NCBI GenBank assembly: GCA_037442925.1
Contig: JBBIPG010000063.1
Location: forward strand, 1 to 13,137
Length of the DNA: 13,137 bases
Direction: 5' to 3'
Origin: Candidatus Fraserbacteria bacterium
GTDB taxonomy: Bacteria; Bipolaricaulota; Bipolaricaulia; RBG-16-55-9
Below the pieces are notes generated by a model that saw only the letters and a list, made by a program, of their open reading frames with translations, searched no databases and was not told the DNA's origin. Shown piece by piece: positions 9,270 through 12,935 of the stretch. Position 1 is the first letter of the stretch; each line of letters begins with the position of its first letter. A program made the position numbers and the translations under genes.

Positions 9270-9283
9270 GAGAGAAAGCTCTG

Positions 9284-9312
9284 TTGCTTTCATCGAATAC
9301 TTGTGGTATAAC
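9284..9312 (+). promoter_or_regulatory. sigma70-type promoter with extended -10, probably giving a leaderless transcript
   Basis: TTGCTT (9284-9289), 17 nt, TATAAC (9307-9312), with TG at 9304-9305. ATG 9321 is only 8 nt downstream and has no SD. Confidence 0.72.
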
Positions 9313-9320
9313 GGCCTTCA

Positions 9321-9677
9321 ATGTTCGCAAGATTTGCGCGCCATGCAATCATTTTGCTGATCATCGTCGCCCTGGATGCAAGCGCGGTCGCTGTAACGTG
9401 CTTGCATCGCTGGCACCTACATGAGTCTTCCGCAGCCTCCGAAGATGGCCACAGCAGCTCGCATCATCACGATACTACTGACCATGACTGTCACCTCCTT
9501 CATAATAGCTATGCTTCCCCAGTTCTTCTAATCCCTGGCAGCTGTGATCAAGCCACGACTGCTACAGACATTCTCCCGGAATTCCAATTGCTCACTTCGC
9601 TTCGCGCAACCTCTCACACCTTCTCGCTACAGCCTTACCACCCTCCTCCCCTCAAACCCCCGAAACTCCTTTCCTAG
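9321..9677 (+). CDS. Putative exported His/Cys-rich leader (arrest-type) peptide, DUF2946-like architecture
   Basis: Signal-peptide-like N-terminus (MFARFARHAIILLIIVALDASAVA). Ten His plus C27 and C57 fall in residues 27-61. The C-terminus is YHPPPLKPPKLLS. It is the first ORF after the promoter and directly upstream of the copC-like genes. Confidence 0.7.
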   Translation: MFARFARHAIILLIIVALDASAVAVTCLHRWHLHESSAASEDGHSSSHHHDTTDHDCHLLHNSYASPVLLIPGSCDQATTATDILPEFQLLTSLRATSHTFSLQPYHPPPLKPPKLLS

Positions 9678-9715
9678 GCCTCGCTATACCCAAAACAGCA
9701 GATCTTTGAAAGGAG
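9666..9715 (+). promoter_or_regulatory. Anti-SD/SD hairpin sequestering the ribosome-binding site of the first copC-like gene
   Basis: CTCCTTTC (9666-9673) is the exact reverse complement of GAAAGGAG (9708-9715). Further inner pairs are 9676-78/9703-05, 9680-81/9700-01 and 9683-85/9697-99. Confidence 0.65.
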
Positions 9716-9724
9716 CTGGTGAAG

Positions 9725-10111
9725 ATGAAGAAAGTGAGTTTGGGTCTGTCTATCGTACTAACAGCCATCGGGTTGGGGCTACTCTTCGTAGGAGCAGCCT
9801 TCGGACATCCACGGGTCGAGACCTCAAACATCGCCGACGGGGCAGTTTTCAATCTCACACAAGTCCCAGGTCAGATCACCCTGACGTTCAACGAGGAGAT
9901 CGATCCCAAACGAAGTGTTGTCTACGTCGTCCGGCTTCAGGGACGCCGGATCGTGGACAACGGCAATCTCTTCATTGAGGAGAATCAGATGACGATCGGA
10001 GTCAATGCGCTCGATGAAGGAGTCTACCAGATCCGCTGGATTGCCGTCACCCCAGATGACGCCGGCTTTAGTGAAGGAACGATCACCTTTGCCGTGCACT
10101 TCGACTCGTAA
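9725..10111 (+). CDS. copC: CopC-like periplasmic/exported copper-binding protein (atypical, no DGH histidine)
   Basis: The signal peptide ends AFG|H, followed by HPRVETSNIADGAV, ITLTFNEEI and L.EGVYQIRWIAVTPDDAGFSEGTITFAV. ATG 9725 is 9 nt after AAGGAG. Confidence 0.85.
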   Translation: MKKVSLGLSIVLTAIGLGLLFVGAAFGHPRVETSNIADGAVFNLTQVPGQITLTFNEEIDPKRSVVYVVRLQGRRIVDNGNLFIEENQMTIGVNALDEGVYQIRWIAVTPDDAGFSEGTITFAVHFDS

Positions 10112-10132
10112 GCTACGCCTATGGAGGTTGCT

Positions 10133-10549
10133 ATGCAACGAAGAACGCAAGCTAGACTGACACAAGGGCTGACGCTGCTCCTAGCGGTTGTGGGAATGCT
10201 GTTCTTGATCGCGAGTGGAAGCGCAGCTCATCCTAACCTACGGGCGAACGAGTCCAGCCCTAGTCCAGGGGCCCTGCTAAACTCCTCACCCGCTAGAGTG
10301 CAGCTGGTCTTCAGCGTGGAGTCTCAGGGACTTGTCCCAGAACAGAGCTTCTTCTGGGTCATCAAGGAAAGTGGGCTGAGTGTGGTTGCCTTGGGCCAAG
10401 TCGATCTCAGCGTTGCCGATCGCAATGTCATGGCTGTAACGCTACCCCACCTGGACCCGGGCGTCTATCGAGTCAAATGGGTCGCGGTATCTTTCAGTGA
10501 TCAAGGCTTCAGCGAAGGCAGCTTCAGCTTTGCGGTCGCGGGCCAGTAA
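10133..10549 (+). CDS. copC: Second CopC-like exported protein (atypical, no DGH histidine)
   Basis: The signal peptide ends SAA|H, followed by SSPSPGALLNSSPARVQLVFS and LDPGVYRVKWVAVSFSDQGFSEGSFSFAV. GGAGG at 10123-10127 precedes ATG 10133. Confidence 0.83.
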   Translation: MQRRTQARLTQGLTLLLAVVGMLFLIASGSAAHPNLRANESSPSPGALLNSSPARVQLVFSVESQGLVPEQSFFWVIKESGLSVVALGQVDLSVADRNVMAVTLPHLDPGVYRVKWVAVSFSDQGFSEGSFSFAVAGQ

Positions 10550-10562
10550 GAAAGACGAGCTA

Positions 10563-10593
10563 CAGGGGAGACAGGCATCGCTTGTCTCCCCTG
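10563..10593 (+). other. Strong intergenic stem-loop (possible attenuator, processing/stability element or RBS occluder)
   Basis: CAGGGGAGACA (10563-10573) pairs perfectly with TGTCTCCCCTG (10583-10593) over 11 bp. Inner GU/GC/CG pairs could extend it. No long U-run follows. Confidence 0.7.
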
Positions 10594-10605: not shown

Positions 10606-12297
10606 ATGAACAGAGTGCTTACCGGCTTATTGCTCATCGCGGCCACCACGTGGCTCTCGGCCTCGACAGCTTTGGCTCATGCGTATCTTGTCAAGTCGGA
10701 GCCGCCGATCGGAGCCGTACTGGCGGCTCCACCGGAGCAGCTCCAACTCAGCTACAGCGAGGCGATTGAACCCAAATTCAGTCACTTCCGACTCTATGAT
10801 GCCCAAGGCAACAGAATCCTCGAACTACCCGCACAGCTGGAGCAAGATGGGCTACAAGCTGTTCTGAGCTTGAGCCCTGTGCCACCGGGTGTTTACACAC
10901 TGAGCTGGCAAGTGCTCTCAGCCGTGGATGGACACCTCACACAGGGGACGATCCCGTTTGCCGTGGGCGTGGATGCCGCTTTGTCATCGTCCATTGGGCA
11001 GGCTACCCAAACCACTTCTGCACCGCCGCTGGGGAGGCTGTTCACCCGCTGGGTAGGATTCTTGGCTACCATGATCCTGGTAGGAAGCCTCTTCTTCCCC
11101 CTGTTGCTTCCTGCCAAGAACGGGATTCCTCAAGAGAACCTCAAGGCAAGAAATCTGCTCCGGATCAGCTGGGGTGTGTTCGTTCTTGCTGGGGTGGCAG
11201 ATGTTCTCTTGCAAGCGCAGAGGCTGGGAACTTCTCTCATGGAAATACTAATGCAGAGCCGCTGGGGTAGCATGCAGCTGGCCAAAGCGAGTTTCGCCTT
11301 GGCTTTAGGGATCACGCTCTGCAACAGTGTGGAAGGCAGGTTCAACCTCTGGTTGGCAAGGTGCTTTTCCGCTCTCTTCCTACTCGCTTCTTCCATGTCG
11401 GGCCATAGCGCCGTGTTGGGACCCATGGGTGTGGCAGCCGACTGGGTTCACCAGCTGACCGTCGCCCTTTGGCTGGGAGGCCTGACGCAACTGGCCCTCA
11501 TTTGGTTCCCCCGAAGGCTACACCGATCTCCAGAGCAGCGGGCTACCTTGCTGAGCGAGCTTGTGTCCCGGTTCTCAAATCTAGCGCTCGTGAGCGTACT
11601 GTTGCTGCTGGGGAGCGGACTCTATGTGGCTTTACGCCAAGTTCCCTCATGGGGCGCGCTCACCTCCACCCTCTACGGTCAAGCCCTGCTCGCCAAACAC
11701 CTCTTGTTGCTTCCAGTCTTAGCGCTGGCAGCCATCAATCGCTGGCTGCTGAAACCCAGAATGATCGCTCGTGTTGCTCTTGTCTCCACCAACCCAGATC
11801 CGGTGAAGAGTGTCGAGAATACAGAGAACACGCTTTCGCATCTTCACAAGCTCATTGCTACAGAAGTGCTGGTTCTTGGAGTAATCGTCCTCTTCGCTGG
11901 TGTTCTGACGCTGACTGCACCGCCTCTCGGAGGTGCCGCTTCTGCGTTGCAGACGCCTCTGGAGCAACCACAGCTCTTCATTCAACCGCTGGGCCAGATC
12001 ACAGTCGCCCTGAGCGTGAGCCCGGTGCGCGTCGGCAAGAACGTCTTCGAGATCGCGGTGACAGATTCGAGCGGAAAGCCCGTCGAGGACATCTTGAAAG
12101 TCTGGATCGATTTTGTTTATCTCGATCAGCCGTTGGGATCGACTACAGCGGTGGCTCAACCGACCGGGGAAGGTCGATACCGCGTGGAGGGGGTTCTCAT
12201 GAGTCTACCTGGCAATTGGCATGTTACCGTCTCGGTCCGCCTCAAAGATAGAATCGATGACTTGAAGGCAGAGGTTCACCTCGTTGTGGAAAGATGA
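10606..12297 (+). CDS. CopC-CopD fusion copper uptake/resistance protein with a C-terminal YtkA/FixH-like domain (YcnJ-like)
   Basis: CopC domain: ALA|HAYLVKSEP...YSEAIE...GVYTLSWQVLSAVDGHLTQG. Multi-TM CopD region: GHSA, ADWVHQLTVALWLGGL, RFS, YGQALLAKH. Beta-rich C-terminal domain: P.RVGKNVFEI...G.Y......LPGNW.V.V. The start is ATG 10606 or TTG 10582. Confidence 0.92.
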   Translation: MNRVLTGLLLIAATTWLSASTALAHAYLVKSEPPIGAVLAAPPEQLQLSYSEAIEPKFSHFRLYDAQGNRILELPAQLEQDGLQAVLSLSPVPPGVYTLSWQVLSAVDGHLTQGTIPFAVGVDAALSSSIGQATQTTSAPPLGRLFTRWVGFLATMILVGSLFFPLLLPAKNGIPQENLKARNLLRISWGVFVLAGVADVLLQAQRLGTSLMEILMQSRWGSMQLAKASFALALGITLCNSVEGRFNLWLARCFSALFLLASSMSGHSAVLGPMGVAADWVHQLTVALWLGGLTQLALIWFPRRLHRSPEQRATLLSELVSRFSNLALVSVLLLLGSGLYVALRQVPSWGALTSTLYGQALLAKHLLLLPVLALAAINRWLLKPRMIARVALVSTNPDPVKSVENTENTLSHLHKLIATEVLVLGVIVLFAGVLTLTAPPLGGAASALQTPLEQPQLFIQPLGQITVALSVSPVRVGKNVFEIAVTDSSGKPVEDILKVWIDFVYLDQPLGSTTAVAQPTGEGRYRVEGVLMSLPGNWHVTVSVRLKDRIDDLKAEVHLVVER

Positions 12298-12344
12298 TAA
12301 GATGAGTGAGAGGGTCAAGTAACGGAGGGGGAGGTACGAAGCAC

Positions 12345-12935
12345 GTGAACAAACGCACTCTTCTCGTTCTGTTTGGCATTGCCACACTCATGCTCGTTGC
12401 CCCATCAGCATGGGCACACTACAGCATTTCCCGACGTGTCGAAAACTGGAACATCACGTTGTCTGTCATTGCCGTCCACTCTCTCGAACACGACGAGGAC
12501 GAAGGGGATACTGCCATCCGCGTGGGAGAACATGAGTTTGAGCTGAATGTACTGGACATCAGCCGCGGGTACCAGCCGGTCGACAACGCACAAATCCGGC
12601 TTCTCTTCCGGATGCCTGATCGCGACATGAGTGAACAATCGATCATCACAGACCCGCAAGGCCAAGGCAGTTACGTCGCGCGGGGGTCTTATCTCACTAT
12701 GGCCGGCCGCTGGCAGCTCGTCGCGGAGTTGAGCCTGACAGATCACGCTGAGCCCGTGCGCGCCGAGTTTGAACTCACCGTTGAGGAACCTTTGCCTGCG
12801 CGAGTGCCCTCTGGCCCACTCGGCCTCGGCCAGTCGAATACGCTCATACTGACAGTGGTCGGTCTAGTTTTGGCGTTGATTGTACTAACACTCGCCGCGT
12901 TTCGATGGAAGCGACAGAGGAGTAAGGAGGCATGA
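12345..12935 (+). CDS. Exported YtkA/FixH-like Ig-fold protein with a C-terminal membrane anchor
   Basis: GTG 12345 follows GGAGGT (12330-12335). The signal peptide ends AWA|H. It contains PVDNAQI.L.F.MPD.DM...G.G.Y.A.G..LTMAGRWQL and ends in a TM helix plus basic tail (RWKRQRSKEA). Confidence 0.78.
   Translation: MNKRTLLVLFGIATLMLVAPSAWAHYSISRRVENWNITLSVIAVHSLEHDEDEGDTAIRVGEHEFELNVLDISRGYQPVDNAQIRLLFRMPDRDMSEQSIITDPQGQGSYVARGSYLTMAGRWQLVAELSLTDHAEPVRAEFELTVEEPLPARVPSGPLGLGQSNTLILTVVGLVLALIVLTLAAFRWKRQRSKEA

Follow-up and report, generated by a model that had tools for sequence, protein, structure and literature searches.

The copC operon of this Candidatus Fraserbacteria bacterium lies behind a 118-residue leader ORF whose last codons carry an eight-base arm that is the exact reverse complement of the Shine-Dalgarno (SD) sequence of the first regulated gene, copC1. 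It is tentatively proposed, with a confidence a little short of even, that this arm is the gate of a leader-run translational switch that activates a copper-import operon at low copper. That a stalled ribosome controls access to the SD is in itself considered probable, and the direction of the response leans modestly towards induction at low copper over induction by copper. The RNA logic is that of the published CutF mechanism and is not new; the novelty lies in the signature of the peptide, in which two invariant cysteines precede an invariant Pro-Pro pair, the second at a nearly fixed spacing, ahead of genes for CopC and CopD proteins. All positions refer to the window, the whole stretch of 13,137 nucleotides that was analysed, and are collected in Table 1.

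Table 1. Positions of the leader, its RNA elements and the downstream genes in the window
Feature	Position	Strand	Remarks
Promoter-like site TTGCTT-17 nt-TGnTATAAC	9284..9312	+	read from sequence; sigma-70-like
Leader ORF, 118 aa	9321..9677	+	N-terminal hydrophobic helix (putative signal or anchor), Cys27, His-rich loop, Cys57, C-terminal PPPLKPPKLLS
Cys27 codon	9399..9401	+	invariant, 34/34 family members
Cys57 codon	9489..9491	+	invariant; 56 residues ahead of Pro113
Pro113-Pro114 codons	9657..9662	+	invariant; predicted stall site
Anti-SD arm CTCCTTTC	9666..9673	+	in Leu-Leu-Ser codons near the leader end
Inner imperfect stem-loop	9676..9705	+	predicted; inside the anti-SD/SD helix
Competing local hairpin	9696..9718	+	predicted, -5.2 kcal/mol; partly masks the SD when the arm is covered
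SD GAAAGGAG of copC1	9708..9715	+	complementary to the 16S-like tail in this genome (C32)
copC1, exported CopC-domain protein	9725..10111	+	first regulated gene; PF04234 E 8.5e-12
copC2, second CopC-domain protein	10121..10549	+	PF04234 E 1.7e-10
CopC-CopD fusion	10606..12297	+	YcnJ-like architecture; PF04234 E 1.4e-19, PF05425 E 6.8e-20
YtkA-like membrane-anchored protein	12306..12935	+	last operon gene; PF13115 E 1.4e-7

The leader has a basic N-terminus followed by a hydrophobic stretch, and its AlphaFold model (pTM 0.32) comprises one confident helix (residues 2-40) and a low-confidence, mostly unstructured chain; the helix would direct export as a cleaved signal or an anchor. The only cysteines encoded in the window leader are C27, C57 and C75. 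The leader closes with the codons Pro113 CCC (9657-9659), Pro114 CCG (9660-9662), Lys AAA, Leu CTC (9666-9668), Leu CTT, Ser TCC and the stop TAG (9675-9677), and a spacer of 47 nt separates it from copC1. The 118-residue sequence matched no family in Pfam or NCBIfam, and searches of this genome turned up no further copy. A search of the ESM Atlas returned high-scoring clusters of unnamed small proteins together with CzcI-like clusters, which serves as a lead only. The mRNA of the leader is probably leaderless or nearly so, because the promoter-like site ends 8 nt before the ATG and an SD is absent. The promoter scanner was silent on this site, its rule demanding a T at the final -10 position. 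By eye, -10-like boxes lie 7-14 nt upstream of leader starts that have no SD at about 9 of 14 loci, and the L004, L005 and L011 leaders differ in having a longer 5' region with AGGAGG. An inverted repeat (GAAAGC-N6-GCTTTC, 9274-9291) overlaps the -35 box of the leader promoter; it was flagged as a minus-strand terminator-like site with a chance-level score and may serve as an operator or mark the end of the upstream gene.

The letters of the anti-SD arm are identical to the 3' tail of the 16S-like end in this genome. A first-pass annotation had placed the Pro-Pro codons, the arm, the SD and the ATG at 9725, and had described eight out of eight pairs between arm and SD that inner pairs extend into one imperfect hairpin. 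Every coordinate proved exact and the complementarity perfect, and folding of 9630-9740, the check that it had suggested, produced the anti-SD/SD helix with the inner pairs (9676-9685/9697-9705) and, in addition, outer ones (9659-9662/9717-9721), with -17.6 kcal/mol for 9659-9721. The pair probabilities of the anti-SD/SD helix are 0.86-1.0 in five of six folding windows; in the sixth (9648-9746) they fall to 0.05 and the arm pairs with the copC coding sequence instead. The copC1 ATG lies 9 nt past AGGAG, and a GTG at 9719 was rejected as the start as it is only 3 nt past the SD. A search of Rfam found no family for the hairpin.

The hairpin is a real and uncommon feature. Among 403 AGGAG starts called by a simple rule in this genome, a perfect helix of at least 8 bp over AGGAG with its 5' arm 25-65 nt upstream is found at two, this one counted, and at three when the arm may lie 10-120 nt upstream. 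The folding of the whole region is unremarkable (z -0.91; 42 of 200 shuffles as good), synonymous recoding (2000 draws) gave the 8-bp helix in 5.9% and an equally strong duplex in 22%, and shuffling of the 30-nt segment at this locus gave p = 0.12. As evidence of selection the single locus is suggestive only, and support comes from the leader family.

The effect of a ribosome held on the Pro-Pro codons was modelled from the general size of the ribosome footprint at 16 loci, and the cost of opening the SD was compared. With Pro113 in the P site the arm occupies +9 to +16, inside or at the edge of the ribosome, and footprint edges from +12 to +24 gave similar results. At this locus the cost falls from 11.3 to 5.1 kcal/mol, a gain of 6.2-6.7 kcal/mol that is equalled by 12 of the 403 starts, this one counted. 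The earlier suggestion that the stalled ribosome covers the arm and frees the SD thus holds for the geometry and for the drop in cost, but the SD is not fully freed: the local hairpin still pairs GGAG, with 4.5-5 kcal/mol left to open. The SD is therefore predicted to pass from tight to loose masking. Across the set, a gain of at least 4 kcal/mol is reached at 4/16 loci with the edge at +17 and at 7/16 with the edge at +23, set against 8% of the 403 starts and 13, 9 and 9 of 200 genes in a background that used a slightly different window. The gain stays below 4 kcal/mol in 9/16 loci even with the wider footprint and below 1 kcal/mol at L002, L007, L010, L013 and L044, and at L003, L005 and L077 the arm begins 14-21 nt past the first Pro, where the cover of a ribosome sitting on the Pro-Pro pair ends or has already ended. 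Local SD hairpins are predicted at L001 (this locus), L002, L011, L013 and L045, and the L013 spacer extends to 182 nt with U-rich hairpins. An anti-anti-SD relay of 5 bp in L002 was dropped as too weak.

The leader is a conserved regulator-like peptide. Matches to copC1 were found in 13 of 61 genomes, this genome counted, and 11 of the 12 others have a similar ORF immediately before the copC1 match; G017 keeps copC and has no leader. Profile searches located the leader family in 13 of 184 genomes of the phylum, always with the same gene order, and as 25 clusters in a library of 1.8 billion proteins, and a second profile round added one paralogue in G003 plus weak matches. In an alignment of 34 leaders with a mean column identity of 25%, only C27, C57, P113 and P114 are invariant. 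The second cysteine precedes the first proline by 56.7±1.2 residues (range 54-61), and the two cysteines are 43±8.5 apart, with the His-rich stretch between them ranging from 28 to 58. A count made free of the alignment finds a cysteine 54-59 residues before the last Pro-Pro in 33/34 leaders, where about 14% would be expected by chance. Between the two invariant cysteines lie 4-13 histidines, and this Cys/His region is a putative metal site. A cysteine also stands 36 residues before the Pro-Pro in 14/34 members and 39 residues before it in 12/34, and because of these some members have a CxxC. The family motif reads [D/E/x]-[R/K/x]-P-P, and no member (0/34) has Arg two residues ahead of the Pro-Pro pair. 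In alignment A4, which omits L005, 2-11 residues follow the pair.

Several members depart from this pattern or stand in other surroundings. The L005 leader (G027) has 29 codons past the Pro-Pro and ends 1 nt before the copC start, in which its close relatives L004 and L011 differ; the extension possibly marks a shift to direct translational coupling. L077 (G023), the one of six weak matches (E 0.001-0.03) that was taken in, is a weak member (E 0.02, hhalign probability 57%) outside the 34-sequence alignment; its spacing is also 57 and it lies 3' of a P-type ATPase gene and a CsoR-family repressor gene. The divergent leader of G023 (L080, 1351-1710) keeps the 57-residue distance, and no other anti-SD in the set is as strong; it follows a CsoR-family gene by 20 nt and precedes genes for a MacB-like ABC transporter, two DOMON proteins and, first of all, an exported protein. 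Paralogous leaders in G007 (L044, 1483-1911) and G003 (L081, 1134-1568) stand before genes for an Fe2+-transport (PF10634) protein and a DUF7405 protein and both behind an ABC-3 permease gene; they may sense another metal. All the genomic contexts examined for the family are metal-related.

Conservation of the anti-SD across the family is partial. The first-pass annotation had pointed to covariation in homologues as a further check, and several differently spelled arms do fit the flanks of their own SDs (L003, L006, L008, L009, L045, L077 and L079), among them L003 (TAAGCTCCT/AGGAGCTTA), L008 (AACCTCCTCTG/CAGAGGAGGTT), L045 (GACCCTCT/GGAGGGTT) and L077 with a helix of 12-13 bp, but by the 4 kcal/mol criterion the arm lacks conservation in 9-12 of the 16 loci. 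Swap and shuffle tests were chosen since arms and spacers vary in position and length and a hand-fitted RNA alignment would be circular. The 16-locus set leaves aside L012 (no leader), L046 (only 97 nt of contig precede the match), L047-L048 (possible duplicates) and L049-L054 (distant CopC matches). For the first 13 loci, own pairs were not significantly better than swapped ones (p 0.06). L045, L077 and L079 were then added and the windows varied in 16 settings, over which own pairs beat swapped pairs at p 0.0001-0.010; leaving out L001 and L077 gave p 0.003-0.006, and tests with one locus per genus gave a median p of 0.037, below 0.05 in 11 of 21 combinations. Base composition inflates the swap test, because an upstream control window likewise beats the swaps in 8 of 16 settings (p 0.001-0.02). 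With composition-preserving shuffles the region after the Pro-Pro pair gave a Fisher p of 3e-6 (4/16 loci below 0.05) and two upstream control windows gave 0.06 and 0.99; these p-values overstate, since the loci are kin and 7/16 come from one genus.

Erosion of the arm is seen in a contig that is about 90% identical to this region (X2; 93 differences in 995 nt) and was assessed pair by pair. Its letters at 9666-9668 are TCT and its SD is the same, so that arm and SD keep five Watson-Crick pairs beside two G-U pairs and one mismatch, with no compensation. In its inner stem one pair changes from G-U to A-U and another is lost, and one outer pair is probably lost; no listed difference falls within the local hairpin at 9696-9718. 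At 9719-9727 the same contig carries six extra nucleotides that duplicate the start region and seemingly place three in-frame ATGs after the same SD.

The four genes behind the leader encode two free CopC-domain proteins, a CopC-CopD fusion and a YtkA-like protein, and the leader is the first gene of this copper-homeostasis operon. The C-terminal domain of the fusion is FixH/YtkA-like, with a FixH match at E 0.0097 that is below the cut-off and, in the orthologue from G003, a YtkA match at E 9e-6. Among named relatives of the CopC proteins, the closest (56% and 43%) are assigned to Candidatus Acetothermia, and a search of the CopCD protein against GTDB contigs found no relative. The genome encodes EF-P, Rho and two heme-copper oxidase subunit I (COX1) proteins. 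Some relatives add to the operon a gene for a multicopper-oxidase-like protein (G011, G014) or a P1B-type ATPase (G015). The N-terminal His is retained in CopC1. At what we take to be the position of the second His ligand in the CopC family it has PDDAG, against VDGH in the CopC domain of the fusion and DH in some relatives, and this ligand seems to be absent from CopC1. Between copC2 and the fusion lies a 14-bp stem-loop (10563-10593; one G-U, loop ATC) with no U-tract after it, which may make the copC1-copC2 portion of the transcript more stable or reduce expression of the fusion, whose ATG at 10606 has no clear SD. In three relatives the CopC-CopD fusion closes with a cytochrome c domain (L055 3590-5635, L056 3680-5758, L063 2540-4621), and a G006 protein (L064, 3218-5014) that combines a CopC domain, a cNMP-binding domain and a Crp-type HTH, and is encoded beside a ZIP transporter and a multicopper/cupredoxin gene, is possibly an unusual membrane-spanning copper regulator.

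It is proposed that the leader is translated and exported, and that its ribosome would pause near Pro113-Pro114 in a metal-dependent manner. The paused ribosome would sit over the arm, the hold on the copC ribosome-binding site would slacken and more copC would be translated, and a stall during copper scarcity would turn the copper-import operon on. The lengths of the ribosome tunnel and the Sec channel set how much of a nascent chain is still enclosed when the ribosome reaches the Pro-Pro codons. The spacing of 56 residues would place Cys57 just past both, near Cys27 where the membrane helix ends. Copper could then bridge Cys27 and Cys57 with the help of the His loop, pull the chain and release the ribosome, upon which the hairpin would re-form and switch the operon off. 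We infer export, stalling, metal binding and direction from these features of peptide and RNA. An intrinsic stall at the Pro-Pro pair is not assured, because RAPP/RGPP is absent and EF-P is present. Induction at low copper is favoured because the CopC-CopD-YtkA set resembles the importer YcnJ and the genome has two COX1 genes, and the paralogous leaders before the Fe2+-transport (PF10634) protein count in the same direction. The first-pass annotation had argued that the polarity suits induction of an uptake system when copper is scarce; the YcnJ-like importer agrees with this, but direction is unreadable from sequence and CutF, the tested case of anti-SD gating, follows the same logic and is copper-induced. 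Overall its interpretation is partly supported.

CutF of Rhodobacter capsulatus (cutFOG) is described as copper-induced, stalling with copper and controlling a multicopper oxidase (PMC9973294, bioRxiv 10.1101/2025.02.05.636593). It resembles the present leader in its 118 residues, its export (putative here), its cysteines, its C-terminal proline motif without RAPP, its short spacer and a stem-loop with an anti-SD that masks the SD of the next gene and is proposed to be opened by stalling. It differs, by the same descriptions, in a CxxxC (69-73) about 41-45 residues before PPP, in place of two distant cysteines with Cys57 56 residues before the Pro-Pro, in its multicopper oxidase target, in place of CopC-CopC-CopCD-YtkA, and in a stem-loop described as intergenic, the arm here lying within the last leader codons; it also belongs to another phylum, and the comparison is one with CutF as described. 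The rules given for CutF-like proteins in PMC9973294 agree with the leader in size and motif position (<150 aa with Pro-Pro in the last 15 residues; here 118 aa and 113-114), in spacer (47 nt) and in having a putative Cys/His metal site. The N-terminal signal peptide that these rules also ask for would here be the basic N-terminus with its hydrophobic helix. An SD-masking stem-loop within reach of the stalled ribosome, as in the CutF mechanism, is predicted here and at 4-7 of the 16 family loci. A term search in three of the supplements of PMC9973294 found no Bipolaricaulota, Acetothermia or CopC; its File S1, a list of CutF-like proteins outside that search, could include the leader family.

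The second known copper-responsive leader, CruR (Bp2923, DUF2946/PF11162) of Bordetella pertussis, is reported to combine CxxC and RAPP 45 residues apart with a 162-nt spacer and copper-triggered Rho-dependent termination, and a fixed spacing from metal site to proline motif is given as a hallmark of DUF2946 leaders (PMC9426467); arrest is described with the first Pro in the P site (PMC12992588). CruR is likewise the first gene of a copper-handling operon, with a Cys-to-Pro-Pro spacing conserved at a value of its own and an uptake system as target, and CopC genes are listed among the neighbours of its homologues. The leader differs from these accounts in having no RAPP, no CxxC, a spacing of 56-57 residues (56.7±1.2 from second cysteine to first proline in the family, against 48-51 in CruR), a 47-nt spacer, an SD-masking hairpin and no PF11162 match. 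Membership in DUF2946 was rejected by the Pfam score and by the CxxC and RAPP motifs (LKPP here): PF11162 did not match the window leader, and the best relative scored 10.6 bits (E 1.0) against a cut-off of 23.7. The RAPP/RGPP arrest peptides SecM, ApdA/ApdP and Streptomyces SLIV_16130 (PMC12992588) share a localisation signal (putative here), a C-terminal Pro-Pro and a place upstream of metal-homeostasis genes, and differ by the motif-defining Arg that the leader family lacks; in SecM stalling is described as opening an SD-masking stem-loop (bioRxiv 10.1101/2025.02.05.636593). The copper-import operon ycnKJI of Bacillus subtilis also encodes a CopC-CopD fusion with a C-terminal YtkA-type domain (PMC13344008), and differs in that the repressor YcnK controls transcription (PMC8424229), whereas here a leader peptide comes first and two free CopC genes precede the fusion. 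A literature search, mostly without subscription papers, found no report of the leader family or of a comparable leader from this phylum.

Among the alternatives, the same RNA switch could run in reverse, with copper on the exported Cys/His region inducing a stall at KPP as in CutF, so that the operon would be copper-induced. CutF is described as working in this way, and its tail PEPEGPPPRL resembles the family tails PPIGPPRLS, PPLGPPRAV and PPTGPPRSA; an xPP motif without RAPP in the presence of EF-P suggests a stall that requires a ligand; and the multicopper-oxidase-like gene and the P1B-type ATPase of some operons, together with the position of the weak member L077 after a P-type ATPase and a CsoR-family repressor gene, point the same way. 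The core regulated genes, however, resemble the importer YcnJ, other paralogues precede an uptake-type protein, and CruR, which controls an importer, is reported to be released by copper. This reversed response is judged rather unlikely. A comparably low probability is given to the reading in which the leader is truly a stalling sensor but acts mainly through CruR-like Rho-dependent termination or through the local SD hairpin, and in which the 8-base arm, equally improbably, would be incidental or an addition confined to the lineage. The peptide features do not vary, whereas the arm is patchy and eroded in X2, Rho is present and the leader end is C/T-rich, as Rho loading sites tend to be, and there are the local SD hairpins at five loci and the long U-rich spacer of L013. 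Against such a route stand the spacer of 47 nt, compared with the 162 nt described for CruR, and the locus-specific complementarity after the Pro-Pro pair, which is significant in shuffles and written in different letters in several genera.

It is very unlikely that there is no switch at all, with the leader an unremarkable small protein that is exported and binds metal, and the helix a chance meeting of pyrimidine-rich Leu/Ser/Pro codons with a purine-rich SD. The statistics of this locus (region z -0.91, recoding p 0.06-0.22, segment shuffle p 0.12) and the copC of G017 without a leader would accord with this, but an unstructured low-confidence model with an invariant Pro-Pro and a ±1-residue spacing is the signature that the published account of regulatory DUF2946 leaders describes, and such peptide features are hard to explain for a folded secreted protein. 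The stall-controlled switch that turns the operon on at low copper is retained as the tentative reading. More doubtful, although possible, is its fuller form, a two-cysteine clamp with a 57-residue ruler and neither RAPP nor CxxC, which would join the direction of CruR to the output of CutF on a YcnJ-type importer and a leaderless mRNA. The leaders may then be, with the same reserve, a lineage-specific family of copper-sensing arrest peptides whose ruler is sized to read copper outside the membrane.

If the proposal is true, copper-sensing nascent-peptide switches would extend to the deep-branching Acetothermia/Bipolaricaulota lineage, in a switch family that Pfam and NCBIfam have missed. The tested examples, CruR and CutF, answer copper in opposite directions through different outputs, and the leader family, with its two invariant cysteines, ±1-residue ruler, non-RAPP proline motif and short spacer, would be a compact test case.
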